DNA from: Podarcis liolepis
Lineage: Eukaryota
DNA: 64,000 nt
Reading direction: 5' to 3' (one strand)
Assembly (NCBI GenBank): GCA_965112155.1
Contig: OZ218110.1
The position numbers and the translations under genes were made by a program. Within the stretch, counting starts at the first letter, position 1, and the number at the start of each line of letters is the position of its first letter. This document shows, piece after piece, positions 6,943-46,351 of this stretch. The notes beneath the pieces were generated by a model. The model saw only the letters and a list, made by a program, of their open reading frames with translations, had not been told where the DNA came from and ran no database searches.

Positions 6943-7383
6943 TCTCTTGCACAGTAATACACAGCCGTGTCTTCCGATTTAAGGCTGTTCATTTGCAGAT
7001 AGAGGAGGCTGTTGGAATTGTCCCTGGAGATGGTGAATCGTCCCTTGACTTTATCCAAGTAGTAAATGTAATCAGATTGGGGATATATGTAGGCTACCCA
7101 TTCCAGGCCCTTTCCAGGAGCCTGCCTCACCCACGCCATGTAGTAGCTGCTGAAGGTGAACCCAGAGGCCTGGCAGGAGAGGTGGAGGGACTCCCTAGGC
7201 CTTTTCACATCTCCCCCAGACTCAACCAGCTGGACCTCCGACTGGACACCTAGAAAGAAAGGCATATTGAGAGACCAGATCCATGTTATGAACACCTAGA
7301 ATGTACCAGCTTTCTTTAACTGGAAGAATGAATTTACCTTCAAAAACTGCTGAAAAGAAAACCAGTTGAAGGAAAACTATCAT
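6943..7383 (-). CDS. IGHV: IGHV segment VH2 (family 1), open; CDR1 [11 protein letters not shown]2 IYPQSDYI
   Basis: Leader 7338-7383 ([15 protein letters not shown]), V exon 6943-7249 with C-W-C framework. Consensus RSS: heptamer 6936-6942, 23 bp, ACAAAAACC 6904-6912. ATGTAAAT 7487-7494. Confidence 0.96.
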
Positions 7384-8129
7384 TTTCCTGGTCTGATTCT
7401 TTGAGAGAGTTAAGCAAGAAGCGGTCCCACATGTGCATGGGAAGGGAGGTTCTCTGACTGCTTTAAAGAGGAAGCTCTCTCTGAAGATTTACATACCCAT
7501 CGGTATAAAAGTACCAACAGAGACTCTGGGCAGTGAGGGACTGGAGTCATGTCTGCACATTGTCAGAAATCTCCTTCTTTGCTGCTGCACAGTTTATACA
7601 GGTCTTTACAGTGATGCTTTGATGTATAACTCTCAGGGGGGGAAAGCAACACAAGTGTTCAGAAATTCCATCACATTCAGCATGCCCAGTATATGTACCG
7701 TTGAAGGTGGGGACCAATTTCTTACCATAAATATGGAGAGGAATTGGGCTGGAAGGATATGGTCAAATGAAGTAGAAGAAAATGTAGATTAAATAACACT
7801 TTAAATCACAGCTCAGCAAAGAAATGAAATGTCTGTGGAATGCTCTCTCTTAAAGGCTTTAAATAAATATATATATGAGTAGCATATGTATAAGAATCCC
7901 GTCTTAATGTTGAATAGTAGAGCACATGACATAACATTCTCACAGCTCCTTGTTCTTGCTCTCCTCGAAGCACAGGGAATCCTGTATTTGTAATATATAA
8001 ATGAGAAATATAAAAGCTGTGTTTACATGGGGGGGGTGTCACTAACATGGAGCTCACGAGCGCGTATATATGCAGGTTCAGTAACATTCACTATTTGTTT
8101 GTCAAGGCATCCTCCCTATTCTTTGGTCC

Positions 8130-8600
8130 TCCACAATACCAAGAATAAGATACACAACAACCAATACTTGGGTGAAATCAGGCCACAACTTTATTGACAA
8201 CAAAAGTTTGGCATAGATATTGGGTATACCCCTTCCCTTTCTGGCAAAAGAACTTGTGTTTTGGGGATAACAAGAAATGAGGGAGTCAATAAAGGGGTAT
8301 CTCCTCCACTGGATTGCACCTGGGGAGTGCTGTGGCTCCTCACCCCTGCCTGGGCATCCCAACTGATGTATCTCCCCACGATCCCTTTAACGGGATATTC
8401 CATTTCAAAGGCTCCCCTCAGAACACGACTTTGCCTATCCAATGCCAAAAACTGTCAAAGTTGTGACATTTGCAATGAGGTTGGCAAAAAGCAGAGGGCT
8501 GAGTGGGAAAATTTCAACCTGGTCCCCAATACGGTGATCGTCTATGCCATAGCAAGGTGGAGCAGAACAATATGAAATAGCAATATGTAAAGTGGGTGGG
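8130..8600 (-). mobile_element. Degenerate LTR/DIRS(Ngaro)-like repeat; paralogues near 15830, 32230, 39630 and 58330
   Basis: Minus strand reads CAATAAAGTTGTGGCC, the same polyA-region motif as the element at 18881. Homology with the paralogous flank at ~24940 stops at this point. Boundaries approximate. Confidence 0.4.
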
Positions 8601-9653
8601 TGGGAATCCAACGAAAAGTGGTTGCAGAACAAGCCATGGGCCTGTATTACATACTGGAGGAACGAGCTTTAACTTGGTTGCCCATGTTTGCTCCCGATTC
8701 ACTGATTAGGCAAGTGGACAAGGCAAATTACTGAAGCAACAAGTTTGGCCAAGAGCCTTCCTTTGATGCCTGGGAATCCCAAGTCAGATCCTGGCATGCA
8801 AGGGAATGCCAGCCAACAATGATGCCCACCCAAGAGGGGGAATTCATTTCTGATAGTATCCTCTCTTCCCAATGGAAATTTGGTTTCAAAGAATCTCTTT
8901 AGTGTAGCCAATACAACAAGTTGTGGCGTGTAGCTGGTTGTGGTGTTTGTGTGTGTAGTGCCCAGTATAGAATGTTTGATGGCCCTTGGAGTAAATGAAA
9001 AAGAGAACTGAATCACAATTTAAAAATAAATATTTGTAGATCTGATCTGGAACCTGAAATCATAATTTGAGGCCATTTTTTCATGTTCCTCCTCCACAAG
9101 AGGTCTGAAGGGTGGCAAAATGAGAAGGATCCATTTCTGAAATGTATTCCTGTTTGTGGAATGCTCTCCCCAGTGAGGATTGCCTGGAACCATCATTATA
9201 AATCTGTAGGCACCAGGCAAAACCTTTCCTCTATAACCAGGCCTTTGGCCTTTAACTATTTGTGGTCTCTTAAAAGTGGGTGAGTTGTTTTTAATGTATT
9301 CTTCTTTCCTTTTTGTTTTAACATATCTATAAAAGGTGTTTTGTTTCTTTGGTTGTAAGTCTCATTGGATTGCCCTGGGCGAGATTAAGGAACTGATAAA
9401 TTCATAATAATAACACTAATAAATGATTATAGTTTGCCTGGGGAGAGCCGTAGGTATACAGCTGCATGGCTAGCTGGCTGTCTCCGTTTGAATGGGCAGA
9501 CTATCAGTCTAAATTATTTTAACAGGTTTCTTTGGTCTCTGGCAGCTAATAGAATGTCCCTATCTTCATTTGGAATGTTGGAGGGAATGCAACTCCTCTG
9601 TTTGATTGAAGGAGGGTTATTGTCTGGCTTCAGATTCACTTCCTCTCACTGTG

Positions 9654-10094
9654 TCTCTTGCACAGTAATACACAGCCGTGTCTTCCGATTTAAGGCGGTT
9701 CATTTGCAGATAGAGGAGGCTGTTGGAATTGTCCCTGGAGATGGTGAATCTTCCCTTCACTTTATCCAAGTAGTGAATTGTACCCGAAGTGGAGCTTATG
9801 TAGGCCACCCATTCCAGGCCCTTCCCAGGAGCCTGTCTCACCCAGTGCATGCCATAGTCCCCAAAGTTGAATCCTGAGGCTTGACAGGAGAGGTGGAGGT
9901 ATTCCCCAGGCCTTTTCACATCTCCTCCAGACTCCACCAGCTGGACCTCTGATTGAACACCTAGAAAGAAGGGCATTTTTAGAATTCTGCTGCATGTTAT
10001 TAACTCCCAGAGTACCCCAACCATCTTTAACTGAAAGGATGTATTTACCTCCCAAAGCTACTGAAAGGAAAACTAGTTGAAGCAAAACTATCAT
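9654..10094 (-). CDS. IGHV: IGHV segment VH3 (family 1), open; CDR1 [11 protein letters not shown]2 ISSTSGTI
   Basis: Leader 10049-10094, V exon 9654-9960. RSS heptamer 9647-9653, nonamer ACAATAACC 9615-9623. Canonical octamer ATGCAAAT 10198-10205. Confidence 0.96.
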
Positions 10095-11868
10095 TTTACT
10101 TGTCTAAACCTGTGAGAGTGTTGAGCAAAATTTGGTCCCAAATATGCAGAGGAAGGGAGGCTGTGTGACTGCTTTAAAGGAGAAGCTTTCGCTGAAAATT
10201 TGCATACCCATCAAGATAAAAGCACCAACAGAGACTTTGGGCAATGAGCGACTAGAGGCATATCTGGACTTTGCAAAAATCTGTCTCTTTGACACTTTTT
10301 GACATTTGCAGAGCTCTTTACATCTGTGGATATGTGTACCTCACAGGATGCACAAGCAACATGGAAACTCTGGGCTCATCAACACTTCCCTTTGTCCTGT
10401 GGGTCCAGGATGTTCTTTTGTTTAGTTGCTTTCCCCTGGTTCTACTGAACCATAACAAATGTCAATCCACAGAAAACCTGGTTGATTTTTGTTCCTATTC
10501 AGTGTTAAACCATGGCTTTTCCTGGAGAAAGTGATGGGAGAAAAGAAAACACAGGAATAAGAGTAGTGTGGGCAAGCCCACTTTCACTCAGAGCATGCCA
10601 AGCACTTTGTGGAAGATAGTGTGCAATTCCTGAACATGCTTGTGGGAAGAATCAAGCTGCAATAATGTGAAGAAATGAAGTTGGAGAGAGATGATGATGA
10701 TGATTTTATTATACTTATATATAACTCTTCATCATTAAATCTCAGGAGGGTTCACAAGATTAAAATACAATGCAAAAGCACAAATAAATAGTTAAAACAT
10801 TAAGTAAGTCAGCCGTCATGACTTGTCACAGCAGCTGTGGAGGAGACTTTGGCCTGACTGTGGTGGTAGCTGAGGAAGTGGGGCATTTAAACAGAAGCCA
10901 GGGCGGCTTCTGTAGATCTGGGATGTTCTGTTCAAAGTAGGACAGTTGGAAGGTCTGCTGTACAACAAATAGTTTGTTTACACATGCCCTCAATCTATAG
11001 GCTATCCATATTTGTAGAAAAGAAGATTGTGCCATGGATTCCTTCCCCACAAACTGTTGCCCATGAGCTGAGAGCACAGAGATAATTGCTTGAAAGTTTC
11101 TCAGGGACTCAAAGTCTCAGGGGGGTTATAGAAAGTTGGTTGACCAGGAAACATCTGAGAAAGTAATTGCTTCACAGATGAAATCACCAACCGTAATTCG
11201 AGCAGCATTTTATTTCAGTCCTGGCAGATGGGGCGTTTTCTCATGTTTGCACCATGACTGCCCCCTTGTGAGAAACAAGAGGGGGAAGAGGTCTGCTTTT
11301 GTGACTAGATGCTTAATGTGCCAAATGACATTTGGTAGAGATTAATGGGTTTTCCTTCCAGTGAAGCCAAATTCTCCTTTAGACCATTTGATCATCCTGG
11401 TTTTTTTATTTTCATTCATTCGCAATTGCCTTACAAAATTTTTTTGTTTATCAATACTCAAAGAGTTTTAAAAACAAATAAGCAATGATCATACCTTGGT
11501 CACAATAATGCAATGCCATTAAACCTTGTTTTACCAAACTTTGCACCAGTGATGGAGCTTCATGCTCTGGAACCAGGGGGTGGAGAGCAGGCGGGAGAGG
11601 GGCTGGGGGCATCCCAGGGGAAGAGCGCGCCGCTGACAGGGGCGTGGCACATGTCCTGGGGGTGGGGCGTGCCACCTGCCGGGGGTGCCAGCCGCAATGG
11701 TACCCCACCAGGATCGCACTGCCAGGGGTGGTGCGCTCCTCCCCACACCTCTTCCTCCTCCAGTGCTTCTCACTGTAACCTCTGTCTACTAAACATGTTC
11801 TATACCTTTCAGTCTCACCACATGCATTTCTTTTGATTGTATAAATCCACTTGCAGAAGGAGAGAGAC

Positions 11869-11976
11869 TCTATCTATCTATCTATCTATTTATCTATCTA
11901 TCATCTATCTATCTATCATCTATCTATCATCTATCTCTATCATCATCTATCTATATACCTATCTATCATCTATCTA
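11869..11976. repeat. (TCTA)n/(TCA)n compound microsatellite; paralogue ~35979-36111
   Basis: Direct reading. Confidence 0.95.
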
Positions 11977-11982
11977 ATATAT

Positions 11983-13842
11983 AGGGTTGGCGCCATCGCC
12001 GAATGGCGGACTCCCTCCGAGCTCCAGAGGGAGTCTGCTCGGCAGGGGTTGGGTCCCGTCGCGCCGGCGACGCGGGGACCCTCAAAAACCATGGGCGCGG
12101 ATGCCCATGGACCTGGTGACTCGTCGGGCACCGTTAGCGACCCCCCGACCCGCGAAGGAGCCTTTTTAAAGGCTACGGAGCGGGGGGGGCGTGGTGCTGT
12201 GAGTCTTCTGCTTCCCCTGCCGAGTGAAGCCGCATGCCATTCGACGGAGAGCGCTGACTTCTTCTTTTGAAAATTTAGACTAAAAATAACAACCCGTGAG
12301 TAATTTGGAAATCGGACCTAAAAGGAAAAAAAAAATTGGATTCGGTACGAGTGGGGGTGGTGCAAAAAGGAAGTCCGTCTCCCCCCTATTGTAGACAATT
12401 TAAAGCAAGGATTTGACAACTAAGGTCAGAAGAGTCTTTTTTTTTATTGATAAAAGTTATTAATTTCACGATGGGAAATTACAAGTAACTGTGCTGGAGG
12501 AGAAGAGTGGATTGTGAGAGTTAAAGTGCAACCCCCCCCGGGAACCGGGAGTGATCCGTGAGAGAGCCTGTGAAGAGATATAGAGATTTTGACAGCTGTC
12601 AAAGTAGCTGTCAAAGTTGGAGAATAAAAAGAGAACTTTGCTATGAGGACTTTGCTGGTTAGATTTGTTACAATTTGGATATAAATTGTTGAAAACCAGG
12701 AATAACAAGTTAGCTTGACTTTTGGGTTTGATCTGGAAGGAAACTAAGTTACCATAATCCCCCTAGAGGGGTTTTGGGACATTACAAGAATGGCTGTAAG
12801 TGGAAAAATACTCATGGAATTGAACAGGACTTTTTATCTCCTGGGAAAGCTGCAAAAGCGAAACATTATTTTGTCTACAGAGGTTTCTACACTAAAGGAG
12901 ACAATAGATATATCTACTGAAGAATGGAAGGGACTTGACGCAAGTTTTTGTTCCTGAACAAATAATAGCCTCTGTAGAGGAACCAGAAGTTTTTGAATTA
13001 GAATGTTTTTGCAGCGGAACAGGAAAAGAAACCTGAGAAAAGTGAGGAATGAGAACAAGGGATTTATGATGATTTGGAAGAGAATGAAGGAGGAGCCATA
13101 TTATTGTAAAAGATCAAGGAAGGCCAAAGGGCTGTCAGGGAGGACACAAAGGAAAACAAGAATTGGACTAAGCTGGAAGTTAGAGCATTTGGGACATTCA
13201 GACTTAAAAGGATTAAGAAACAGAATTTGAGTTTTACTCTTAAATATAGAGGTCTGGATGGAAGAAAAATGGACTTTCTTGAGATGGAGCTTCTCTAAGA
13301 TTGGGCGTTTGAAGCTAAAGATTACCAAGAAAACCGGCAAAGTGGAGCTGAGAGAGATTTGGACATGGACGTGAGGTCTCCAGGCTGATAGCAGATAGAC
13401 TGATGGATATTGGGGATCGAAACCGGGAAAGGGGGGAGGGAGATTTGGAATCCAAAGGGTGTAAAATTATATTTTGAATCTTTTTTTTAATTTTTTTTAT
13501 TTCGTTTTGCTGTGTGTATTAAAAAGGGGAATTCGTGGAAGGGAATTGGGGTTGACCTTGGGGGGGGGAATTATTGTTGAAAGAGGGTGGCACTTAAAGG
13601 GAAAAGTGGTTATATAAGATGAAATTAAATTGAATATTGGGTTAAATATAATAAGTTTTAAATTTGGGGTAAGAACTTGTGGAACTAATCTAATGGAAGT
13701 GGAATACAAGAGGGAGAGGGGTGAGGAAGTCCTGGAAAGATGTTGATGAAAGCAAGATTTAAAATGAAAGTGCTTTTTTCTTTTCTTTTCTTTTTTGTGT
13801 TTTGGATTTTTTGGAAATTTTAATAAATATGATTTAAAAAAA
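11983..13842 (+). mobile_element. Putative non-autonomous L1-derived element (CpG-rich 5' end, decayed ORF1-like middle, AATAAA plus A tail)
   Basis: CpG-island-like start, purine-rich interrupted frames, AATAAATATGATTTAAAAAAA end. Not seen next to the paralogous flank at ~55700 (a gap lies close by). Internally deleted copy at 36118-36485. Confidence 0.55.
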
Positions 13843-14442
13843 TTACAATGTTTGTGTGTTTCGATAGGCAGCTCTCTGCATAAATAAAAGCCCTTGTTAC
13901 ACATGCATATCTGAATTGTTATATATGTTTGCTTTGCTGGAAGACCCTAAGGAGAAGCAGAGACTTGTGTGGAGAGATGGTGTCCCGACTCCATCCTTTC
14001 TCCCAATGAAGATATTTCCACACGCAGAGGCCATGTAAAATGCTTTACGGCAACTAAATAAAGTATATGCACTACATAAAGAAAACATCATATGGCCTCA
14101 CCATAGGCAAGTGCACACACGTGAGCCTTAAAAAGACCCTAACTTCCAAAAATGCATGAACAGAGAGCATCATGTGTGTTATATAATTCATGTAAAAGAG
14201 GGATAGAAGCAGGAATTAAACCACAAGATGCTGCTTGAACCCATGTTAAATCCTGACCGTCTTTGGGTCACATAGACTTAAATAAGAAATATATTTAGGA
14301 GGGCTGACACACTAAAGGGGACAAACAAAAAATCTTTTGAACTACATGTTTCTTCAGTCTCTTGCAGCCGAACCATCTCAGAAAGCATCTGTGTGCAAAG
14401 GAGAGTTTTTGCTTGGCTTCAGATTTACTTCCTCTCACTGTG

Positions 14443-14883
14443 TCTCTTGCACAGTAATACACAGCTGTGTCCTCAGGTTTCAGATTGTTCATTTGCAGAT
14501 AGAGGAGGCTGTTGGAATTGTCCCTGGAGGCAGTGAATCTTCCCTTTACTTTATCCGAGTAGTAAATGTAATTCGATTGAGGATATATGTAGGCCACCCA
14601 TTCCAGGCCTTTTCCAGGAGCCTGTCTCACCCAGTGCATGTGAGCAACCCAAAAGTTGAACCCGGAGGCTTGGCAGGAGAGGCGGAGGGACTCCCCAGGC
14701 CATTTCACATCTCCCCCAGACTCAACCAGCTGGACCTCCGATTGGACACCTAGAAAGAAAGGCATATTGAGAGACCAGATCCATGTCATTAACACCCAGA
14801 ATGTACCAGCTTTCTTCAACTGGAAGAATGAATTTACCTCCCCAACCTGCTGAAAAGAAAACAAGTTGAAGGAAAACTATCAT
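14443..14883 (-). CDS. IGHV: IGHV segment VH4 (family 1), open; CDR1 [11 protein letters not shown]2 IYPQSNYI
   Basis: Leader 14838-14883, V exon 14443-14749. RSS heptamer 14436-14442, nonamer GCAAAAACT 14404-14412. ATGTAAAT 14987-14994. Confidence 0.95.
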
Positions 14884-15071: not shown

Positions 15072-15530
15072 TTTTGCTGGGTTTGATGGGGAAGAAGATT
15101 AAGAAATCGGACCAAAGACTATTCATGTACACCACAGCAGTGGCAAGGAATATGCTGGCCCAATATTGGCAATTACAAGAAATTCCTACCATTGCGGAGT
15201 GGCAGACGAAAATGATGAATTACGCCAAGTTAGCCAAGCTGACTGGCAGGATTCGGGATCGGGATGATCAGAGATTCCAGGATAGTTGGAGTAAAATTGT
15301 TGTGCACTTTAAGGATAACTGTAAAAATTTAAAGACACTGGCAGGACTGAAGGAACTCCTACAATGAATAAGATAGATATAAGGTCAAAAAACTATAATA
15401 CGTGACTGGGGAGAACAAGGGATACCTGCTGAAGGTAAGGAGGGAAGTCGCAAGCTCGGCAGAGCTAAAAGTGTATATGTGGGCTAAAGAAATGTAAAAT
15501 GAATTTGAAAAGAAAATAATAAAAAATTAT
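15072..15530 (+). mobile_element. 5'-truncated L1-type LINE (ORF2 C-terminus, 3' UTR, A-rich tail)
   Basis: Frame LLGLMGKKIK...RLFMYTTAVARNMLAQYW...EWQTKM...AKLT...FQDSW resembles vertebrate L1 ORF2 C-termini. Absent from paralogues at 7572 and 57552. Confidence 0.75.
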
Positions 15531-16639
15531 TGATGAAGAAATGAAATGTCCATGGAATGCGCTCTATTAAAGGCTTTAAATAAAAATATACAGGAATAGC
15601 ATATGTATAAGAATCCTGTCTTAATGTAGAATAGTAGAGCACATGACATAACATTCTCATAGCTCCTTGTTCTTGTTCTTCTCACAGCATGGGGAATCCT
15701 GTCTCTGTAAGATGTGAATGAGAAATACAAAAGCTTTGTTTACATTGGGCGGAGTGTTATATGGGTGCATATGCATATTCAGAAACATTCCCTGTTTGCA
15801 TGTCAAGGCATCCTCCCTACACTTTGGTCCTCCCCTATACCAAAATTAAGATACACAACAACGAATACTTGGGTGAAATCAGGCCACAACTTTATTGACA
15901 ACAAAAGTTTGGCATAGGTATTTTGTACACCCCACCCCTTCCTGCTAAAAGAACTTGTGTTTTGGGGACAACAAGAAATGAGGGAGTCCCAGACCTACAC
16001 CAGGGGGTATCTCCCCCACTGGATTGCCCCTGGGGAGTGTTGTGGCCCCTCACCCCTGCCTGGACATCCGGACAGAAGCATCTCCCCATGATCCCTTTAA
16101 CAGGATACTCCGCTTCGAAGGCAGGGGCTACAACTGCCCCTCAAAGCAAGACTATACCTATCCAATGCCCAAACTGTCAAAGTTGTGACAATTACAATCA
16201 GGAGGGCAAAAATCAGAGGGCTAAGTGAGAAAATTTCAACCTGGCCTCAAATTCGGTGGAGCAGAGCAACATGCAATAGGAATATGCAAAGTGGATGGGT
16301 GGAGATCTAATGAAAAGTGGCTGCAGAACAAGCCACAGGCCTGTATTATATACTGGAGGAACGAGCTTTAACTTGGTTGCCCATGTTTGCTCCCGATTCA
16401 CTGATTAGGCAAGTGGACAGGGCAAATTACTCAAGCAACAAGTTTGGCCAGAGCCTTCCTCTACTGCCTGGGAATCCCAAGTCAGATCCTGGCAGACAGG
16501 GGAATGCCAGCCCACAATAGCGCCTACCCAAGAGGGCGAACACACTTCTGACGATATCCTCTCTCCCCAATGGAAATTTGGTTTCAAATAAGCTCTTTAG
16601 TGTAGCCAATAGAACAAGTTGTGGTGTGTAGCTGGTTGT

Positions 16640-16640
<1 letters not shown>

Positions 16641-16678
<38 letters not shown>
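16641..16678. repeat. (TG)n microsatellite; paralogue ~40435-40472
   Basis: Direct reading. Confidence 0.95.
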
Positions 16679-16681
<3 letters not shown>

Positions 16682-17398
16682 GCCCATTATAGAATGTTTG
16701 ATGGCCCTTAGTGTAAATGAAAAAGAGAACTGGGTCACATTTTAAAAATAAATATTTGTAGATCTGATCCGGAACCTGAGATCATAATTTGAGGCTGGTT
16801 TTTTCATGTTCCTCCTCCTTCATGATGTCTGGAGGGTGGCAAAATGAGAAGGAGCCTTTTCTGAAATGGATCCCTGTTTGTGGAATGCTCTCCCGAGTGA
16901 GGATTGCCTGGAACCATCATTATACATCTGTAGGCACCAGGCAAAACCTTTCCTCTATAACCAGGCCTTTGGCCTTTAACTATCCGTGGTCTCTTAGAAA
17001 TGGATGAGGTGTTTTTAATGTATTTCTCTTTACTCTTGGTTATATTGTATCTATGTGGGGTTTGTTGTCTCTTGGATTATAAGTCGCATTGGATTGCCAT
17101 GGGTAAGAAAAAGCAACTGAGAAATTCATAATAGTAGCACTAATAAATCATTATAGTTTCCCTAGGAAAATTCCCAGGTGTACAGCTGCATGACTAGCTA
17201 GCTGTCTGTGTGTGAATGGGGACCTGGAAAAAGAAAGTGGCAGACTATGGGACAAAATTATCTTAACAGGTTTCTTTGATCACTGGCAGCTGATATAATA
17301 TCCCTATTTTCATGTGGAATCTTGCAGAGAATGCAACTCCTCTGTTTTGATTAAAGGAGGGTTTTTGTCTGGCTTCATATTCACTTCCTCTCACTGTG

Positions 17399-17839: not shown

Positions 17840-18082
17840 TTTTGCCTGCCTGATGCTTTGAGAGATTTGACCAAAATGTGGCCCCTAGTATGCAGGGATA
17901 GGGAGAGTGTTTGACTGCTTTAAAGAGGAAGCTCTCTCTGAAATTTACATAACCAGGAGGATAAAAGTACCAACAAAGACATCTGACAATGTCTGACTGG
18001 AAGCAAATGGTGACCTGGCAAAAATATACTGCACAATTTGCATAGCTCTTAACCTTGATGGGCTTATGTATCCTCCTCATGC

Positions 18083-23677: not shown

Positions 23678-23691
23678 TGTTATTATTGTTG

Positions 23692-25022: not shown

Positions 25023-25294
25023 TCAACATCAACAACATCAACAATATAATGAACAGTGATCACCCTGTGTGTTATATAATTCATGTAAAAGAGGGATAGA
25101 AGCTAGAATCAAACCACTAGGTGCTGCTTGAAGCCATGTAAAATCCTGACCTTAAATATGTCTTTGGCCTCAGAGACCAAATAACAAACAGGTGGGGGGA
25201 GTGCTGGCATGCTAACGGGGACAAATATCTCAGAGAGCGTCTGTGGACAATGGAGGGTTTTTGCTTGGCTGCAGAGTCACTTCCTCTCACTGTG

Positions 25295-25736
25295 TCTCTT
25301 GCACAGTAATACACAGCCGTGTCCTCTAGTTTCAGGTTGTTCATTTGCAGATAGTGGAGGCTGTTGGAATTGTCCCTGGAGATGGTGAACCGTCCCTTGA
25401 CTTTATCCGAGTAGCGTTTGGCAGATGAATCTGTACTTATGTCTCCCACCCAATCCAGGCCCTTTCCAGGAGCCTGCCTCACCCACACCATCCAGTAGCT
25501 GCTGTAGGTGAAGCCAGAGGCTTGACAGGAGAGGTGGAGGGACTCCCCAGGTCTCTTGACATCCCCTCCAGACTCAACCAGCAGGACTCCAGATTGGGCA
25601 CCTAAAAAGAAAGACATTTTAGCATAACTGCTGCATGTTATTACACTCAGAGTGTCCCATGCTTCTTGATTTGAGAACGGATGAATTTACCTCCAAGAGC
25701 TGCAGAAAATAAAACAAGTTGTAGCAAAAGTATCAT
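25295..25736 (-). CDS. IGHV: IGHV segment VH8 (family 1, divergent subgroup), open; CDR1 [11 protein letters not shown]2 ISTDSSAK
   Basis: Leader 25691-25736, V exon 25295-25601. Heptamer 25288-25294, nonamer GCAAAAACC 25256-25264. Canonical ATGCAAAT 25847-25854. Confidence 0.95.
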
Positions 25737-29318: not shown

Positions 29319-31035
29319 TTTCCCTGTGTGAAATGTTGTCCCAGGCATGCAGGCAAAGGGAGGGTGTCTGACTGCCTTTGAGAGGAAGCTTCCTCTGAAG
29401 ATTTACATACCCATTAGGATAAAAGGACTAGCAGAAACATTTGGCAATGTAGAACTGGAGGCGTGTCTGCTCTTTGCAAAAATATTCTTCTTTACTACAA
29501 TACAATGCACACAGCTCTTTACAGTGGTGGATTTATGTATCCATATCAGGTTAGAAAAGCAACACAGGCTTCTTTTTTTGAACATGTCCAGTGCCCTTAT
29601 TAGGGATGGTGGTGAACGGCTCATTAACTTAAATGGAATGATATGATCAAATGAGGTTTCAGAAAGTTTAGATTGGGAATTAAATAAACATGTAGACAAG
29701 GGCACAGGAAAGAGGGAATTTTTTTTGTCAAATGTCATCTCTTAAAGGTTTTAAACAAAAAGGTAGAAGATACAGTTTATCCTGCCTTAAGACCAAATAA
29801 TTCTGCACCAGGCAAGGCATGCTCACAGTTCCTTATTTTTACCTTTCTCAAAACAACAAAAGTCATTTATAATGTGCCCTTTGCAATGTGTGAATGAGGA
29901 AATATGAAAAATGTGTTTGCATCCTGGGTTGCTAACATGCTGCCCATGGGTGCCCATGCATCTGCAGAAAGCTTCCCTGGTTCTCTCTCTCTCCCCCCCC
30001 CCCCCAGATTAGCCTTTAAATAAGCACAGTCTGTATAACAGGTTGTGGTGTGTGGTGGGTTGCTTGTGGTGTTTGTGCATAGTGCCCATAACAGATTTTT
30101 CTGATATCCATATGTGCCCATGGGTTGTTGGTGGCTCCTGGCCTACATGAACCAGACACTTGAGTCACAAAAAAATAAAATAAAAAAATAAAATAAAAAA
30201 TGAACAGGGGAATCTTTTGCTGATCAAACAATCGCTATTGGTATCTCCAAAAGTAGAACTAGGAACAAATGTGTGTTGTTCTAAAGGTCTGCCTATTTCA
30301 ACCTGCTTACCTAATGAAGAACTTATGCACCCAAAGTTAATGNNNNNNNNNNNNNNNNNNNNNNNNNNNNNNNNNNNNNNNNNNNNNNNNNNNNNNNNNN
30401 NNNNNNNNNNNNNNNNNNNNNNNNNNNNNNNNNNNNNNNNNNNNNNNNNNNNNNNNNNNNNNNNNNNNNNNNNNCATGCGATCTCAACACAGGCATGTGT
30501 GCACATGTAGAAAGTGATCTCAACCCAATATGTTAAATTAAACATAAAAAGGCCTTAACTTCCAAAGAAATGTAGATAGTGAGCATCACGTGTTACATTG
30601 CCCATGAAAAACAATGATAGAAACAAGAATATAACCATATATAGGAAGGTGTTGAAGACAAGATTTCTATATTTTTAAGATTTCTATATTTTTAAGAGTT
30701 ATGCTCTTCCCTCTCAAACACTGTCAAGCAATGGATATCTCACCCTTTCCCTGGTCCAGTGTCTACCTGAGCGCTGCAAGGAAGAACAATGTTAAGTATT
30801 GTGAAAATAGCTGGAGCCTGTGAGTGCTGCTTGAACCTCTGCAAAACCATAACCTGGAATGTGTTTTGAGGTCTCATTGTAAAATAGGATGGTGAATGTT
30901 GATGTGCAAAAGGGGACATGAAAATATTCCTTTAAACTATAAGTTGCAATGCTTGTTCCTCAAGATTGTAATTGAGAGCACCCATGTGAAAAGGAGGGTT
31001 TTTGTCTGGCTTCAGATTCACTTCCTCTCACTGTG

Positions 31036-31476
31036 TCTCTTGCACAGTAATACACAGCCGTGTCTTCCAATTTAAGGCTGTTCATTTGCAGATAGAGGAG
31101 GCTGTTGGAATTGTCCCTGGAGATGGTGAATCGTCCCTTGACTTTATCCAAGTAGTAAATGTAATCAGATTGGGGATATATGTAGGCTACCCATTCCAGG
31201 CCCTTTCCAGGAGCCTGCCTCACCCACGCCATGTAGTAGCTGCTGAAGGTGAACCCAGAGGCTTGGCAGGAGAGGTGGAGGGACTCCCTAGGCCTTTTCA
31301 CATCTCCCCCAGACTCAACCAGCTGGACCTCCGACTGGACACCTAGAAAGAAAGGCATATTGAGAGACCAGATCCATGTTATGAACACCTAGAATGTACC
31401 AGCTTTCTTTAACTGGAAGAATGAATTTACCTTCAAAAACTGCTGAAAAGAAAACCAGTTGAAGGAAAACTATCAT
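31036..31476 (-). CDS. IGHV: IGHV segment VH10 (paralogue of VH2), open
   Basis: Leader 31431-31476, V exon 31036-31342. Consensus RSS (31029-31035, 30997-31005). ATGTAAAT 31580-31587. One amino-acid difference from VH2 (KSED>KLED). Confidence 0.96.
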
Positions 31477-36013: not shown

Positions 36014-36056
<43 letters not shown>

Positions 36057-36117
36057 ATCTATCATCTATCTCTATCATCATCTATCTATATACCTATCTA
36101 TCATCTATCTAATATAT

Positions 36118-36485: not shown

Positions 36486-37080
36486 TACAATGTTTGTGTG
36501 TTTTGATAGGCAGCTCTCTGCATAAATAAAAGCCCTTGTTACACATGCATATCTGAATTGTTATATATGTTTGCTTTGCAGGAAGACCCTAAGGAGAAGC
36601 AGAGACTTGTGTGTGAAGGTGTCCCGACTCCATCCTTTCTCCCAATGAAGAAATTTCCACACCCAGAGGCCATGTAAAATGCTTTACGGCAACTAAATAA
36701 AGTATATGCACTACATAAAGAAAACATCATATGGCCTCACCATAGGCAAGTGCACACACGTGAGCCTTAAAAAGACCCTAACTTCCAAAAATGCATGAAC
36801 AGAGAGCATCATGTGTGTTATATAATTCATGTAAAAGAGGGACAGAAGCAGGAATTAAACCACAAGATGCTGCTTGAACCCATGTTAAATCCTGACCGTC
36901 TTTGGGTCACATAGACTTAAATAAGAAATATATTTAGGAGGGCTGACACACTAAAGGGGACAAACAAAAAATCTTTTGAACTACATGTTTCTTCAGTCTT
37001 TTGCAGCTGAACCATCTCAGAAAGCATCTGTGGGCAAAGGGGGGTTTTGTTTGGCTTCAGATTCACTTCCTCTCTCTGTG

Positions 37081-37530
37081 TCGCTTCTTTCTCTTGCACA
37101 GTAATAAACAGCCGTGTCTTCAGGTTTCAGATTGTTCATTTGCAGATAGAGGAGGCTGTTAGAATTGTCCCTGGAAGCGGTGAATCTTCCCTTCACTTTA
37201 TCCGAGTAGTAAATGTAATTAGATTGAGGATATATGTAGGCCACCCATTCCAGGCCTTTCCCAGGAGCCTGTCTCACCCAGTGCATGACATAGCCCCCAA
37301 AGTTGAATCCAGAGGCTCGGCAGGAGAGGCGGAGGGACTCCCCAGGCCTTTTTGCATCTCCCCCAGACTCAACCAGCTGGACCTCCGATTGGACACCTAG
37401 AAAGAAAGGCATGTTGAGAGACCAGATCCATGTTATTAACACCCAGTATGTACCAGCTTTCTTCAACTGGAAGAATGAATTTACCTTTCAAAGCTGCTGA
37501 AAAGAAAACAAGTTGAAGGAAAACTATCAT
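37081..37530 (-). CDS. IGHV: IGHV segment VH12 (positional paralogue of VH4), open, with a 9-nt 3' extension and variant RSS
   Basis: Leader 37485-37530, V exon 37081-37396 ending CARERS. Heptamer CACAGAG 37074-37080, nonamer ACAAAACCC 37042-37050. ATGTAAAT 37634-37641. Confidence 0.9.
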
Positions 37531-37718: not shown

Positions 37719-39329
37719 TTTTGCTGGGTTTGATGGGGAAGGAGATTAAGAAATCAGACCAAAGACTATTCATGTACACCACAGCAGCGGCAAGGAATAT
37801 GCTGGCCCAATATTGGAAATTACAAGAAATTCCTACCATTGCGGAGTGGCAGACGAAAATCATGAATTATGCCAAGTTAGCCAAGCTGAATGGCAGGATT
37901 CGGGATCAGGATGTTCAGAGATTCCAGGATAGTTGGAGTAAAATTGTTGTGCACTTAAAGGATAACTGTAAAAATTTAAAGACACTGGCAGGACTGAAGG
38001 AACTCCTACAATGTATTGAGGCATCTAATCATAGCCTGCATTTTTATCAAGGCTTATAGTTTGATTAGGGTCTGTATTTTAAAATGAGCTTAAAGATTTT
38101 CAAATGTTTTATGCCAGGCAGAAGACCAGCTGCCTAAGTACTTTGGCAAGATGTTTATCCTCCTGGACAAGGGGGCCCCCTGATTTATAGCAGAAAACAA
38201 TTCTCAAAGTCGTAAAAAGGGAATTACAGGCTGAGACCAAGGTTACACTGACCCTACAGAATTAATAGTTGGTAAATAGTAAAATAAAACCATGTGCCTT
38301 AAACTTGAGCCATATCTTCCTAAGGTTAAAGGCCAAGAGTAAATGGAAAAGAAAGCAACTGGCTGAGAAGGGAAGTGTAAATAGAAGAAGAGGCTTTTAT
38401 TTTGAGGCTGTAAACTGTTCCTTCCTTTCCTTTGAGAAGGTTTATTCTTCTAAAAAGCTATCTATGATAATGTATGAAATATACTGGCTTAAATGTAATT
38501 ATGCAAAGGATCTAGAAAGAAATAAATGTTAAATTCTTATTTCATAGAGTCATATTGCTGTAGGAGACCAGAGGGGCAGATGAGCCCAGCCCCCTGCCAG
38601 ACAGGAGACGCCATCAAGCACTCCTGATATATGGTTGTCAGGCCATTGTTTAAAGACCTCCAAAAAGGAGATCTTTCATTGATGATGCATGAGAATGTGA
38701 ACCCAAGATCCCTGACATCTGTCTAAGATAAAAATTTAAAACTATTAACCATCTGTTTTGGAGGGCAATAGGGCAAGGAGGGCAAGAGGTGAGCTGGTAA
38801 TTAAGGTTCCTTGTTGAGACAAATGTAAGATATATGACTACTTATTTGTCATTTATAGATAGAAGAATATATAGCCTTTTGTATCCCATAAAAGGCAATA
38901 GGAAATGGGTGTATCTTTTAGGATTGGTTATAGCAATCAGCCAATAGGAAATTCAACCAGGCTGATTGGACAGAGGCAGCCAAAGGAGGAGCAACGGGGC
39001 TGGACTGAGGGAATATAAGTGCTGGCCATAATGACAGGAGACCAGGCCAGAGCTTGGTAACCATATACCACTGTGCCTCTCATTTATTTGTCTGACAAAT
39101 AAATTATTATTTTAATTTCTCTATTGCTGCGTTGAATATTTCATTCCAGCTAAGCGTTAACCACAAGCAGGGTGCTACAGTATAAGATAGATATAAGGTC
39201 AACAAACTATAATACGTGACTGGAGAGAACAAGGGATACCTGCTTGGCAAGCTTGGCAAAGCTAAAAATGTATATGTGGGCTAAAGAAATGTAAAATGAA
39301 TTTGAAAAGAAAATAATAAAACATTATTG
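37719..39329 (+). mobile_element. L1 3' fragment (paralogue of 15072-15530), split by a solo LTR
   Basis: Same sequence as 15072-15530, interrupted at 38017-39179. Confidence 0.75.
38017..39179 (+). mobile_element. Solo LTR (1163 bp; ERV1- or Gypsy-type by its 4-bp TSD)
   Basis: TG...CA ends (TGAGGCA/TGCTACA). TSD GTAT at 38013-38016 and 39180-39183. CCAAT boxes ~38940-38968, TATAA ~39014, AATAAA ~39098. Empty site at ~15365. Confidence 0.9.
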
Positions 39330-40434
39330 ATGAAGAAATGAAATGTCCATGGAATGCGCTCTATTAAAGGCTTTAAATAAAAATATACAGGAATAGCATA
39401 TGTATAAGAATCCTGTCTTAATGTAGAATAGTAGAGCTCATGACATAACATTCTCATAGCTCCTTGTTCTTGTTCTTCTCACAGCATGGGGAATCCTGTC
39501 TCTGTAAGATGTGAATGAGAAATACAAAAGCTTTGTTTACATTGGGCGGAGTGTTATATGGGTGCATATGCATATTCAGAAACATTCCCTGTTTGCATGT
39601 CAAGGCATCCTCCCTACACTTTGGTCCTCGCCTATACCAAAATTAAGATACACAACAACGAATACTTGGGTGAAATCAGGCGACAACTTTATTGACAACA
39701 AAAGTTTGGCATAGGTATTTTGTATACCACCCCTTCCTGCAAAAAGAACTTGTGTTTTGGGGAAAACAAGAAATGAGGGCGTCCCTGACCTACATCAAGG
39801 GGTATCTCCCCCACTGGATTGCACCTGGGGAATGTTGTGGCCCCTCACCCCTGCCTGGGCATCCGGACAGAAGCATCTCCCCATGATCCCTTTAACAGGA
39901 TACTCCGTTTCGAAGGCAGGGGCCACAACTGCCCCTCAAAGCAAGACTATACCTATCCAATGCCCAAACTGTCAAAGTTGTGACAATTACAATGAGCAGG
40001 GCAAAAATCAGAGGGCTAAGTGAGAAAATTTCAACCTGGCCCCAAATTCGGTGGAGCAGAGCAACATGCAATAGTAATATGCAAAGTGGGTGGGTGGAGA
40101 TCTAATGAAAAGTGGCTGCAGAACAAGCCACAGGTCTGTATTATATACTGGAGGAACGAGCTTTAACTTGGTTGCCCATGTTTGCTCCCGATTCACTGAT
40201 TAGGCAAGTGGACAGGGCAAATTACTCAAGCAACAAGTTTGGCCAGAGCCTTCCTCTACTGCCTGGGAATCCCAAGTCAGATCCTGGCACACAGGGGAAT
40301 GCCAGCCCACAATAGCGCCTACCCAAGAGGGCGAACACACTTCTGACGATATCCTCTCTCCCCAATGGAAATTTGGTTTCAAATAAGCTCTTTAGTGTAG
40401 CCAATAGAACAAGTTGTGGTGTGTAGCTGGTTGT

Positions 40435-40476
<42 letters not shown>

Positions 40477-41191
40477 TACTGCCCATTATAGAATGTTTGG
40501 TGGCCCTTAGTGTAAATGAAAAAGAGAACTGAGTCACATTTTAAAAATAAATATTTGTAGATCTGATCCGGAACCTGAGATCATAATTTGAGGCCGTTTT
40601 TTTCATGTTCCTCCTTCATGATGTCTGGAGGGTGGCAAAATGAGAAGGAGCCATTTCTGAAATGGATCCCTGTTTGTGGAATGCTCTCCCCTGTGAGGCT
40701 CTCCTGGAACCATCATTACACATCTGTAGGCACCAGGCAAAACATTTCCTCTATAACCAGGCCTTTGGCCTTTAACTATTTTTGGTCTCTTAGAAATGGA
40801 TGAGGTGTTTTTAATGGATTTCTCTTTACTCTTGGTTATATTGTATCTATGTGGGGTTTGTTGTCTCTTGGATTGTAAGTCTCATTGGATTGCCATGGGT
40901 AAGAAAAAGCAACTGAGAAATTCATAATAATAGCACTAATAAATCATTATAGTTTCCCTAGCAAAATTCCCAGGTATACAGCTGCATGACTAGCTAGCTG
41001 TCTGTGTGTGAATGGGGACCTGGAAAAAGAAGGTGGCAGACTATGGGACAAAATTATCTTAACAGGTTTCTTTGATCACTGGCAGCTGATATAATATCCC
41101 TATTTTCATGTGGAATCTTGCAGAGAATGCAACTCTGTTTTGATTAAAGGAGAGTTTTTGTCTGGCTTCAGATTCACTTCCTCTCACTGTG

Positions 41192-41632
41192 TATCTTGCA
41201 CAGTAATACACAGCAGTGTCCTCGGGTTTAAGGCTGTTCATTTGCAGATAGAGGAGGCCGTTGGAATTGTCCCTGGAGAGGGTGAATCTTCCCTTCACTT
41301 TATCCATGTAGTACATTGCACCTGAATTGTGGCTTATGTAGGCCACCCATTCCAGGCCCTTCCCTGGAACCTGCCTCACCCAGTTCATGCCATAGCCCCC
41401 AAAGTTAAACCCAGAGGCTCGACAGGAGAGGCGGAGGAACTCCCCGGGCCTTTTCACATCTCCTCCAGACTCCACCAGCTGGACCTCTGATTGGACACCT
41501 AGAAAGAAAGGCATTTTAAGAAGTCTGCTGCATGTTAACAACACCCAGAATGTACCAACCTTTGATAACTGGTATGAGAAATTTACCTCCTAAAGCTACT
41601 GAAAAGAAAACAAGCTGAAGCAAAGCTATCAT
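41192..41632 (-). CDS. IGHV: IGHV segment VH13 (paralogue of VH5), open
   Basis: Leader 41587-41632, V exon 41192-41498. Heptamer 41185-41191, nonamer ACAAAAACT 41153-41161. ATGTAAAT 41736-41743. Confidence 0.96.
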
Positions 41633-43978
41633 TTTTGCCTGCCTGATGCTTTGAGAGATTTGACCAAAATGTGGCCCCTAGTATGCAGGGATAGGGAGAG
41701 TGTTTGACTGCTTTAAAGAGGAAGCTCTCTCTGAAATTTACATAACCAGGAGGATAAAAGTACCAACAAAGACATCTGACAATGTCTGACTGGAAGCAAA
41801 TGGTGACCTGGCAAAAATATACTGCACAATTTGCATAGCTCTTAACCTTGATGGGCTTATGTATCCCCCTCATGCAGTGGTGTAGCGTGGGGGGTGCAGG
41901 GGGGGCCGGCCGCACCGGACGCAACATCTGGGGGTTAGGGTTAGGGGGCGCAAATCCACGGGTTAGGGGGGCGCAAATCCATGGGCTAGGGGGCGCAACT
42001 CTGGTGAGACTTGGCAAATTAATATGAATATAAAGCCACTCCCGACATAAGGGGGGGGGTTGCGGGCTCACGCCCACCATCATCTGGGGAATCCTCAGGC
42101 CGCGTCATCCCCTGGGCCAGCAAATCGGCAGGCTGCAGGGGTGGGGCTAGGGTCACTTAAGGACGGCGCGGCCCGAGATCGCCCCTTTTCCTTCCCTGTT
42201 CCAGCTGCGGTTTCCCACCCACCCACCCTCTAGGTCTTCCCTCGGACTTTGCTATGGAACTCGGTTGGTCGCCGCAAAGGGCCTGGTAGGAGTTTTTCCA
42301 CTCGGCAAATTGGCATTGATTTAAAGCCATTTGGTTTTTTCGCCTACCGCGTAGCAAAACATCACAACACATTCAGTTTTGGCGGTTAGGCATTGGTAGG
42401 GGTATTATTATGCAGATGAGTAGGGGGGGGAGGAGCGCCATCACCTTCTCCAAATATTCAAGGGTAGTCTGATAAAGGATTCTGGGGGGGCGTTGCCTCG
42501 TCTGAAACCTATGGAGGCTAGGGCCCAAAGCACGCTCCCGAGCGATGACCCCTCGGGGAGCGCCTAGGGATGTGCATCTCAGGGGCTCCCCCTGTTGGTG
42601 TTAACCCTTTCTGGTTCTATGCCGGATAGTCTGATAGGACCAACGCCTAAAGCCAATACCGCTCTTACCTGTAACCAATAAAGTTGTGGCCATTTTTCGC
42701 CCATTAACCTAAAATTCTACTGTCCTGTGTCTTTATTTACTCTAACTGGGGGGGGGGGGGATGTGTGACTTGGCAAATACAAATACCTACATGAATCAGG
42801 AAATTTACTTGCATCAGTCAAGCGTTATCAAGCGTTGGCAAGCAGTCCTTTTTTATTCTTGACAGAAACAAGCAAAACAGAGGCATCAGTAGAGGAGATC
42901 TGACTATTGTCTGACTGGACCGCACCTCCTTCCATTGGCATTTTCTGTTCTTGACAGCATCACTTCCCTCTTGTGGGGAACAGGAAGAGGTGGGATATAA
43001 TTCCAGGAGTCTTGGTTTCTGACAAGATGCTTAATTTGCAAAATGGCATTTGACATAGATTTGCGGGTATACTGTCTAGTGACATGGGGAAGAGCAAAGC
43101 AGCACCAAACATGTAGTTGCACCAAATACACATTTCAAGTATTAGATCTTGATTTTTAAAATTATTATTCTTTCAGTTAATTCTTCTCTTAACATACCAC
43201 AGAATACACCATTGCTGAACAGAACTGCCAAACCATAGGTTTTCCATATCTGATTATTTTCCTCACCACAATGGAGAGGTAGGTGTTGGGGAATAAGTGT
43301 TATATATGCACATAAACACAATTCCCATGGAATTTATAATATTTATTTCCAGCATTTTATTCTAGCTTTTCCCTCGAATTCAAGGTGCTATACATTATAT
43401 CGCCCTCCTCATATATTTCCCATTATACCCCAGTAAGGTAGGTCAGACTGAGAGGCTGAGACTGACCCAAGGTCATCTAGTGAGCTTCATGCACAAGTAG
43501 GTATTTGAACCCGGGTTTCCCATGTCCTATGTGCTGCAGAGGTTTCAGCCCATGCCAAGAGGTGATGGGATGATGAAGAAATACACAATGGCCAATTCAC
43601 AATATTGTAAAAAGTCTACATTTCTTCTTGAGGTCTATCGCAAGCAGCCTTAAGCATAACTCAGAGGTAAGAGCAGACAAAACACAAATAATCATCTATT
43701 TTCAAAACTGGATATTGAATTTAGGTGGTAGGAAAAAAATGCTGCAGCAAAGTCATTTGGTACAGTGTTGTACTGATCCACATTGGTCGACCTCCACTGT
43801 GTGTCACTTTTGCGTTTCTGCATTATATTACAGATTGAAGAGGCAGGCAGTTTGGATGTTGTTCCGCATCATCTGTGGAATGTAGAATTGCTCTGTCACA
43901 GTTTTCACAGTGTATTTTTTTTATAGAAGCAGGACTTCTACTTTTTGAACAGGGCCCAATAGGCTTTGTCTCACTGTG

Positions 43979-44426
43979 TCTCTTCGGGCACAGAAATACA
44001 CAGCAGAGTCTGCAGCTGTCAGGGAGTACAGCTGGAGAGAGAATTCATTCTTTGAGGCATCTGAAGAAATGCTTGCTCGGCTCTTCAGAGAAGGGGCATA
44101 TGCTGTGTTTCCATTATAGGGGTATATCTCTGCAATCCATTCCAGACCTTTCCCAGGAGCTTGACGGATCCAATCCCATACATAATACTGAGTAGAGATG
44201 GAGAAACCTGTGACTTTACAAAGTAGGTTGAGATTCTCTCCTGGTCTCGCTATTCCTGGTCCAGATGATACAAGCTGAATGTCTGAGGAGACCCCTTGGA
44301 AAGACAAAAGAGGGCAATGAATGATTGGACATCATCCAATCACCACATGAAGTAAATTAATACTGTAAAACTTCCCGTACCTTTAGAAAAAGCCACCAAA
44401 GAAAACAAGAGCAACAAGAACTCCAT
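43979..44426 (-). CDS. IGHV: IGHV segment VH14 (family 2), open; CDR1 [13 protein letters not shown]2 IYPYNGNT
   Basis: Leader 44381-44426, V exon 43979-44294. Heptamer 43972-43978, nonamer TCAAAAAGT 43940-43948. ATGTAAAT 44545-44552. Confidence 0.95.
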
Positions 44427-44828
44427 AATGTTGATGAATGAATGTGCTAGAGATACAGGAAAGAGGGGACTCTGGGCTGGGAAGCAAGTGAAGATTTTTT
44501 ATTCAGGGCTTTTCATCCGAAACCACTCCCAACTTCCTGGTGGTATTTACATGAGACCTCCCCAGTGAGGCACATGAGGCAAATAAAAGCCATTTGGGAG
44601 ATCAGGGTTTGCTGCTGCTTTCCTCTTTGTCCCATGCACACACACACACACAGACAAATGCACACAGAGTGGAGTTCTAATGCAGGGGGCATAAACGGAA
44701 TGTAAAATTCAATCGAAGACATTTGTGTTGGAGGAAGGTTTCGAAGAAATAAATATACTGGGGATGATTTTTTCTTTCTTTTATGCTTTAAAACTGTTCG
44801 TTGTGGTGGATCAGTCAATAGACTGGCT

Positions 44829-44860
<32 letters not shown>

Positions 44861-45606
44861 ATCCTCCCTTCCACATGCACCTATAGAGATGCCTCTGGTG
44901 TGACACAACTATAATTTCAAATGCAGCTTGTGAAAAAGTTGGGCTGGGATGGAGCTCTGCTGTGGCAACCTGGAGAAGATGAATTTTAAGTAAATAAAAG
45001 AAAATGTAAGATATGTGTTCCATCTTTATATTCACACCCCAGGGCACCCTTCATAGACAATGGAAAGAGACAAAGTTGAGCCAATTCCTTCCACCCCTCT
45101 CCCTTTTGTTTGGTGAGGGGTTGACTGACAAGAAGTCGTAAGCACACAAAGGTTGTGGTTCAGGATATAGCAGGAGTGTGGAGGTTGTCTGGGTGAATTA
45201 AGAAGGAGTCGTCCTCACCAGCATTTGCCTTTGGGCAGGGGTGGGGAAACTCATCGAAATGTTTTGGTACTCCAACGCCTTTCATCCTAGGGGTAGCCAT
45301 TTTGAAGTTCGAGAGATGGTAATGATTTTATTATAGTTATATATCACTTTTCATCATAAAACCTCAGGATGGTTCACAAGATTAAAATACAACTTAAAAT
45401 GAAAAATGTTCTTCCTCTTCTCAAAGCACGGGGAATCCTGTCTTTGTAATAGGCAAATGAGAAATATAAAAGCTGTGTTTACATGGGGGTGTCACTAAAC
45501 ATGGTGCTCATGACTGCATATATATGCATGTTCAGAAACATTTCCTATTTACATGTCAAGGCATCCTCTTTGGTCCTCTTTGAGCAGTAAGAAGACCCTA
45601 ACTTAA

Positions 45607-45661
<55 letters not shown>

Positions 45662-45664
45662 TAA
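45607..45664. repeat. (AAT)n microsatellite; the paralogous site ~24980-25042 carries (AAC/ATC)n
   Basis: Direct reading. Confidence 0.93.
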
Positions 45665-45909
45665 TGAACAGTGAGCATCCTGTGTGTTATATAATTCATG
45701 TAAAAGAGGGATAGAAGCAAGAATCAAACCACAAGATGCTGCTTGATGCCATGTAAAATCCTGACCTTAAATATGTCTTTGGTCTCAGAGACTTAAATAA
45801 CAAACAGGTGAGAGATTGCTGGCATGCTAAAGGGCACAAATATCTCAGAGAGCGTCTGTGGGCAAAGGAGGGTTTTTGCTTGGCTGCAGATTCACTTCCT
45901 CTCACTGTG

Positions 45910-46351
45910 TCTCTTGCACAGTAATACACAGCCGTGTCCTCTGGTTTCAGGTTGTTCATTTGTAGATAGAGGAGGCTGTTGGAATTGTCCCTGGAGATAG
46001 TGAACCGTCCCTTGACTTTATCCGAGTAGCGTTTGGCAGATGAATCTGTATTTATATCTCCCACCCAATCCAGGCCCTTTCCAGGAGCCTGCCTCACCCA
46101 CGCCATGTAGTAGCTGCTGAAGGTGAACCCAGAGGCTTGACAGGAGAGGTGGAGGGACTCCCCAGGTCTCTTGACATCCCCTCCAGACTCAACCAGCAGG
46201 ACTGCAGATTGGGCACCTAGAAAGAAAGGCATTTTAGCATAACTGCTGCATCTTATTACACTCAGAGTGTCCCGTGCTTCTGGATTTGAGAACGGATGAA
46301 TTTACCTCCAAGAGCTGCAGAAAATAAAACAAGTTGTAGCAAAAGTATCAT
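45910..46351 (-). CDS. IGHV: IGHV segment VH15 (paralogue of VH8), open; CDR1 [11 protein letters not shown]2 INTDSSAK
   Basis: Leader 46306-46351, V exon 45910-46216. Heptamer 45903-45909, nonamer GCAAAAACC 45871-45879. ATGCAAAT 46462-46469. Confidence 0.96.

Follow-up and report, generated by a model that had tools for sequence, protein, structure and literature searches.

A lizard immunoglobulin heavy-chain V gene pair whose first complementarity-determining region was probably acquired by germline exchange between neighbouring paralogues

The window analysed here, a stretch of 64,000 nucleotides (nt) from the lizard Podarcis liolepis (G000:C14:9176001-9240000), sits within an immunoglobulin (Ig) heavy-chain V cluster, and our subject is a pair of its genes, VH2 and VH10, which share a patch across the first complementarity-determining region (CDR1) with VH15, a gene of a distant sublineage. 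A translated search that covered 444 kb round the window and another 20 kb of the contig yielded 113 V matches, every one of them on the minus strand. The window contains a tandem duplication with offsets of ~24 kb (VH1/VH9, VH2/VH10, VH3/VH11, VH4/VH12, VH5/VH13 and VH6/VH14), and VH8 and VH15 are offset by 20.6 kb. An earlier reading of the sequence (the original prediction), whose gene numbers are kept as far as VH16, took VH8 to be the positional paralogue of VH15; we retain the term with the qualifier that it may mean an older duplication, because these two genes diverge more in non-coding sequence (3.4-8.4%: 3.4-3.5% in the leader, intron and 5' flank, and 7.6-8.4% in the 3' flank) than do the copies of the VH2-VH3 block (2.45%). 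VH19 is a label given here to one further gene of the window, and names such as o9031 denote genes beyond the window, numbered by kilobase.

VH2, VH10, VH8 and VH15 each have a leader exon, a short intron, splice sites, C22/W36/C96, a recombination signal sequence (RSS) with a 23-nt spacer, and an upstream octamer-like motif, and their homologues with PF07686 are named Ig heavy V. In VH2 the signals are an ATG, GT/AG splice sites, an 88-nt intron, an open V exon and CACAGTG-23-ACAAAAACC. Exchange tests were made on family-1 genes, with tract states read from the assembly sequence. There are 16 family-1 matches in the window, counting broken pieces and taking the two pieces of VH9, which is split by a long interspersed element (LINE), as one; the window set comprises the 13 intact ones, after VH9 and two pieces near 50.7-51.2 kb were dropped. 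The wider family-1 alignment has 56 genes, and the 40 with an ungapped frame were used for the permutation, run-simulation, diagnostic-site and clustering tests; trees had 27-28 rows, the triplet scan 26 genes and the triplet null 15 genes.

According to the original prediction, 46091-46136 in VH15 is base-identical to 7124-7169 in VH2. The match is exact over those 46 nt, and the true run is longer: VH15 shares an uninterrupted 71 nt with VH10 and 68 nt with VH2 (Table 1), in genes that differ from VH15 at 40 of 297 exon nt in each comparison. The shared run covers codons 23-45, that is, the end of framework 1 (FR1), CDR1 and most of FR2, and the tract includes 11 framework-2 codons (36-46). 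In the whole genome, VH2, VH10 and VH15 are the sole exact matches to the 30-nt CDR1. Beyond the run, the leader, FR1 start, CDR2 and flanks of VH15 are of the VH8 type, as had been predicted, and so is its intron; outside the tract VH8 and VH15 form a clade with support of 100/100. Two other genes with SSYYMAW, o9031 and o9041, were tried as direct donors and rejected, with 9 of 71 tract sites different from VH10/VH15.

Table 1. Coordinates in the window of the V genes compared and of the shared tract
Feature	Position	Strand	Description
VH2	6904..7383	-	Intact IGHV from leader ATG to RSS nonamer; mosaic, likely recipient line
VH2 tract equal to VH15	7102..7169	-	68 nt identical; exon nt 70-137
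VH10	30997..31476	-	Twin of VH2, intact, from the second ~24-kb duplicate; the exons of the two have 2 differences
VH10 tract equal to VH15	31195..31265	-	71 nt identical; exon nt 67-137
VH10 diagnostic donor-type sites	31203-31249	-	Exon nt 83-129
VH15	45871..46351	-	Intact IGHV; VH8-type beyond the tract; extant gene nearest to the donor
VH15 copy of the tract	46069..46139	-	End of FR1, CDR1, most of FR2
VH8	25256..25736	-	Sister of VH15; 12 exon differences, 5 of them in the tract
VH4	14404..14883	-	Sister of VH2/VH10; GFNF-type CDR1 (host state)
VH12	37042..37530	-	Sister of VH2/VH10; GFNF-type CDR1; itself likely mosaic (37289-37318 VH16-like)
VH19	56894..57373	-	Sister of VH2/VH10; GFNF-type CDR1, CDR2 type as in VH2/VH10

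The original prediction had proposed germline exchange between distant VH sublineages across CDR1, and permutation, simulations, a triplet scan and incongruent trees all support it. In a Sawyer-type permutation among the 13 intact window genes, the GENECONV-like check suggested at the time, VH10-VH15 and VH2-VH15 both gave a global P of 0.0002, and no other tract fell below 0.19. Because permutation ignores rate differences along the gene, we also simulated evolution without recombination under position-specific rates, where the 71-nt run had P 0.0017 for VH10-VH15 and 0.022 for any comparably diverged pair. The best of the 15,600 triplets scanned over intron and exon makes VH2/VH10 the child of VH4 and VH15 (P 2.5e-8; Bonferroni 0.0004), a value reached in none of 4345 no-recombination simulations, the smallest of which gave 2.4e-6. 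As a candidate recombinant child in the same scan, VH15 itself was rejected, its best Bonferroni P being 1.

Trees of separate regions, a further check that had been suggested, are incongruent inside and outside the tract. Upstream, at the FR1 start and over CDR2 and FR3, VH2/VH10 group with VH4, VH12, VH19 and o9248, and in the concatenated non-tract tree these genes form a clade (100/98) with o9248 outermost; in the tract tree the same four sisters fall in a GFNF-type clade (95/91) that leaves VH2/VH10 outside. Approximately unbiased (AU) tests reject VH2/VH10 forced with VH8/VH15 outside the tract (P 7e-6) and VH2 held with its four sisters inside it (P 0.008), with groups defined post hoc from the trees and the identical VH10/VH15 rows unconstrained in the tract test.

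Which gene changed can be read from diagnostic sites, defined as those at which at least three of the four sisters (VH4, VH12, VH19, o9248) differ from VH8=VH15. VH10 carries the VH8/VH15 base at 12 of 12 such sites in the tract, as against 1 of 49 upstream (where 47 of 49 place the VH2/VH10 line with its own sisters), 1 of 9 at the FR1 start and 3 of 21 in CDR2 and FR3. Host-type sites at nt 66 and 138 flank the donor-type sites at nt 83-129, and the tract is therefore 47-71 nt long; one donor-type base lies outside it, at nt 56, and is common to VH3/VH11. Four of the twelve tract sites (nt 87, 114, 126 and 129) are synonymous, so that protein convergence is not enough as an explanation. Since VH8, and not VH15 alone, has the tract states, the patch marks VH2/VH10 as the changed genes; the direction given in the original prediction, with VH15 as recipient, is thus probably to be reversed, the VH2/VH10 line being the recombinant.

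An opposite polarity, in which VH2/VH10 retained an ancient SSYYMA CDR1 and gave it to the ancestor of VH8/VH15 before these split, would suit the presence of SSYYMAW in two distant cluster genes, o9031 and o9041, and the fact that at nt 114 and 126 the outgroups of VH8/VH15 share the FR2 states of VH2's sisters, which leaves those two sites by themselves uninformative on direction. We think it very unlikely, as the GFNF tract would then have arisen independently at least twice round VH2/VH10, the next clade out being GFNF-type too, and as o9031 and o9041 depart from VH10 at the nine tract sites mentioned above.

The exchange is an inherited one: the RSS of the genes is intact, as in unrearranged genes, and VH2 and VH10 both carry the mosaic. 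It also occurs at the protein level in P0005 (CAI7934902.1, under the NCBI name Podarcis lilfordi, the source of the closest named homologue among the matches listed), which joins GFTF-IN-YYMAW to a YIYPQS CDR2 and matches none of the 113 V matches of the locus; compared with VH10 it has 4 differences in 99 residues, and compared with VH15 it has 12 within codons 47-99. The same mosaic under another species name makes it likely that the mosaic is old and not an assembly error, and this protein comparison suggests that it likely predates a species split. In a protein search with VH2 CDR1-CDR2, P0005 was the sole lacertid-named match among the 120 of 247 listed. Near-identical paralogues are abundant in the cluster and the bases are known from the assembly alone, conditions under which assembly or polishing might copy reads from one paralogue to another; such an artefact is nevertheless scarcely credible here, given a mosaic in two separate genes and in a P. 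lilfordi-named protein outside the 113 V matches. With a bounded tract of identity beyond chance, incongruent trees and an inherited state, we regard germline exchange between paralogues as almost certainly real.

What is observed is the identity, where it begins and ends, trees that disagree inside and outside the patch, and intact gene anatomy. On these grounds we consider that VH2/VH10 are probably mosaic, their common ancestor having received a patch of 47-71 bases from the VH8/VH15 line by germline ectopic homologous recombination, likely gene conversion. The direction, with the VH2/VH10 ancestor as likely recipient and the VH8/VH15 line as likely donor, comes from parsimony on the tree. 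A single event before the VH2/VH10 duplication would suffice, and it would have joined neighbouring paralogues (VH10 and VH15 are 14.9 kb apart today). Both ends may have been resolved in conserved framework stretches next to CDR1, and over nt 67-82 and 130-137 VH15, closest to the donor, shows no difference from VH19; a patch with such ends would look CDR-sized without any CDR-targeting machinery. The outcome would be an intact gene pairing a VH15-type CDR1 with a VH19-type CDR2, present in two copies, while VH8 would have drifted later, mostly through point mutation. The divergences given above fit, and do not prove, the order of VH8/VH15 split, transfer and VH2/VH10 duplication. As for a reciprocal product, no VH8/VH15-type gene with a GFNF CDR1 was found among the 113 V matches; it could be lost or on another haplotype.

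Several results weigh against this history. In the Sawyer-type permutation the global P is 0.054 at third positions alone, and again 0.054 among 40 cluster genes, where the tract ranks 7th and framework-only runs between distant genes rank on top; it is for this reason that the parametric nulls are relied on. The pairwise homoplasy index (PHI) gives P 0.17 on exons alone (0.20 without VH2/VH10), and 0.015 with leader and intron included (0.008 without VH2/VH10). The tract clade of VH2, VH10, VH8 and VH15 is weakly supported (80/82 in one analysis, 46/44 in another), the AU groups were chosen after the fact, and gene conversion and double crossover leave the same picture here. There is no VH8/VH15 orthologue from another species among the best 120 of 2831 protein matches, nor among the listed rows of a longer-match search with 1513. 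The two values of 0.054 would also suit a history with no exchange at all, in which ancestral sequence was retained and selection converged on a widespread CDR1 motif: in homologues CDR1 begins most often with GFTFSSY, and among the 120 proteins listed SxYYMxW occurs in 26 and SxYWMxW in 20. We find such a history highly improbable, since four synonymous diagnostic sites match the donor, the parametric P is 0.0017-0.022 for the run and <0.0003 for the triplet, and the independent SSYYMA genes of the cluster differ at silent sites.

Codon 33 is a further difficulty. It reads TGG in VH8 and in the four nearest outgroups checked (o9028, o9256, o9262 and VH1), and TAC in VH15, VH2/VH10, VH19, o9248, o9031, o9038 and o9041; VH19 and o9248, in which TAC is native, are two of the four sisters of VH2. 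With these states, and if transfer went one way, two bases of the codon must have changed along the branch of either VH15 or VH8, via a stop or Cys codon. Either VH8 went from TAC to TGG, or VH15 went from TGG to TAC before donating, or VH15 was later converted by VH10.

The last of these implies two steps, an old transfer into VH2/VH10 and then a patch (at least codons 33-35) copied back into VH15 from VH10, VH2 or a lost third gene, and it would rescue the direction of the original prediction as a second event. VH15 equals VH10 at all five sites of the tract at which it differs from VH8, codon 33 among them; there are 0 differences in 71 nt though the mosaic looks old; and the triplet that derives VH15 from VH8 and VH10 has a nominal P of 5e-4. 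Without recombination the best triplet has its 5% level at 4.3e-4, close to that value, which is also biased, since VH10 already bears the patch of the VH8/VH15 lineage. The run of codons TAC-ATG-GCG is found also in o9031 and could therefore be ancestral in VH8/VH15, which counts against back-transfer.

The differences between VH8 and VH15 bear on the same point. Five of them had been said to be packed into ~30 nt, and they do lie at nt 78, 86, 98, 99 and 104, within 27 nt; as a sign of conversion the packing fails, for the clustering is not significant (P 0.086 against a uniform distribution, 0.15 when weighted by family-wide variability, and 0.34-0.43 when the adjacent pair counts once). 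Two of the sites look private to VH8, whose state is found in 0 of 38 other genes at nt 86 and in 3 of 38 at nt 78. Beyond the tract, too, there are replacements private to VH8 (codons 52, 79 and 88), and the changes private to VH15 are silent. A genome search for a donor of the VH8 CDR1 (28-nt pattern, up to 2 mismatches) matched VH8 alone. We hold a back-transfer into VH15, for which codon 33 alone leaves room, to be doubtful, with some real chance of being right. The original prediction had itself named congruent trees, no significant tracts and a VH8 altered by point mutation as results that would count against it: the trees clash and the tracts are significant, and the point-mutation part nearly holds, in that nt 78 and 86 look VH8-private.

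Other genes of the cluster are mosaic as well. In VH12 the CDR1-region patch at nt 68-97 fits VH16 instead of its twin VH4, and would come from a VH16-like gene (nominal P 3.3e-5; Bonferroni 0.51; parametric global P about 0.005); VH19 against VH4 shows a tract at nt 176-273 (Bonferroni 0.037), either of the two being possibly the changed gene. Outside the window, o9031, o9087 and o9099 give strong mosaic signals at ~nt 147-241 (CDR2-FR3), as does o9038 from the intron to nt 72 (at 9031587, 9087010, 9099361 and 9038164 on G000:C14), with Bonferroni values of 1e-6 to 5e-4 from the triplet scan alone. Exchange is thus recurrent in the cluster. The original prediction spoke of CDR-sized cassettes exchanged between genes: exchange of CDR1 stands, with a second CDR1 mosaic in VH12 (two of the three window cases include CDR1), but the tract of VH2/VH10 takes in the 11 FR2 codons, other tracts span CDR2-FR3 or intron-FR1, and tract positions overall are not limited to CDRs. 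A stronger proposal, which we judge unlikely, would be that germline conversion, recurrent and under selection, shuffles CDR1 between sublineages of the lacertid IGHV cluster, with the patch moved twice in opposite ways, the VH12 CDR1 taken from a VH16-like gene, and the locus conversion-prone, maybe somatically in lizard B cells too.

VH2 and VH10 have further peculiarities. Their 3' flanks (below 6940 in the case of VH2) group with o9241 (near 9241472 on G000:C14; 100/99), and their FR3 is nearest to that of VH3/VH11 (2-3 differences in 99 nt), so that there may be another recombination junction. A third, distant VH family has two genes (9173925 and 9337891 on G000:C14) whose CDR1 also ends in YYMAW, a motif that thus recurs at the protein level.

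In the duplication as a whole, the copies 6393-12170 and 30475-36305, and likewise 15368-21281 and 39182-45052, diverge patchily, at 0-8% per 300 bp; the VH2/VH10 region has 1 substitution in 600 bp, and beyond 20768 divergence is 15-17%, a pattern that suggests homogenisation of local stretches and a loss of co-linearity upstream of VH14. In VH1 (4752-5080) FR3 is interrupted by an in-frame stop and the residue after W36 is G where V is usual; the gene is likely a pseudogene, like its twin VH9. The FR3 of VH9 is split by an 865-bp element (28077-28941) with a reverse-transcriptase tail, short 3' tandem repeats and TTTG on both sides, which we take to be a CR1-like LINE; a copy 98% identical lies in opposite orientation beside VH1 (3546-4410), and the two are young insertions. 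At 50500-52100, a broken V gene near 51.0-51.2 kb lacks the 5' portion; after it comes a repeated 3' piece (50655-50760), and it adjoins an inverted copy of intergenic sequence.

Germline exchange between V genes is known from other vertebrates. For pig germline VH genes a review describes a 'mix and match' of shared CDR1 and CDR2 over a block duplication, ascribed to genomic gene conversion (PMC3384076); frameworks there are nearly identical, whereas outside the patch 40 of 226 sites (~17%) distinguish the lizard donor from its host, which makes donor, recipient and both boundaries readable in the lizard. A 16.7-kb interlocus exchange reported in human IGK, between proximal and distal units >98% identical, is likewise a germline exchange between duplicated V-gene units, seen as incongruence along the alignment (10.1101/006866); that exchange homogenises the units, and the lizard tract of 47-71 nt lies between diverged genes and gives a new CDR1/CDR2 pairing. 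In another reptile IgH locus, segmental duplication and permutation-tested identical tracts in turtle IgD2 constant exons have been read as exon exchange or conversion (10.64898/2026.07.17.739153), there in constant-region exons and here in the CDR1 of a V gene. Gene conversion is listed among the processes of birth-and-death evolution of Ig loci in a review that also describes the chicken somatic system (PMC3308330). Short templated tracts pass from one V gene into another in birds too, but somatically, from upstream pseudogenes into one rearranged functional V (PMC3308330); the lizard change is inherited and both partners are intact and unrearranged. The avian layout of one functional V with pseudogene donors is not that of this cluster, in which many V exons are open and donor and recipient are intact, and the lizard exchange can be explained with no link to avian somatic conversion. 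A 2014 review describes the mode of somatic change in reptiles as unclear (PMC4279169). We found no study of germline V exchange in a lizard in the literature searched, a coverage that leaves out most subscription journals.

The lizard VH2/VH10 pair is a new and clean example of known germline V-gene exchange, an ordinary reshuffling route for antibody gene clusters, and it points to no new mechanism. Whole-exon trees and orthology calls in this cluster mix histories. Lizard antibody loci are little studied, and VH2/VH10 offer a readable case in which a V gene gains a new CDR1/CDR2 pairing in a single step, not by point mutation.

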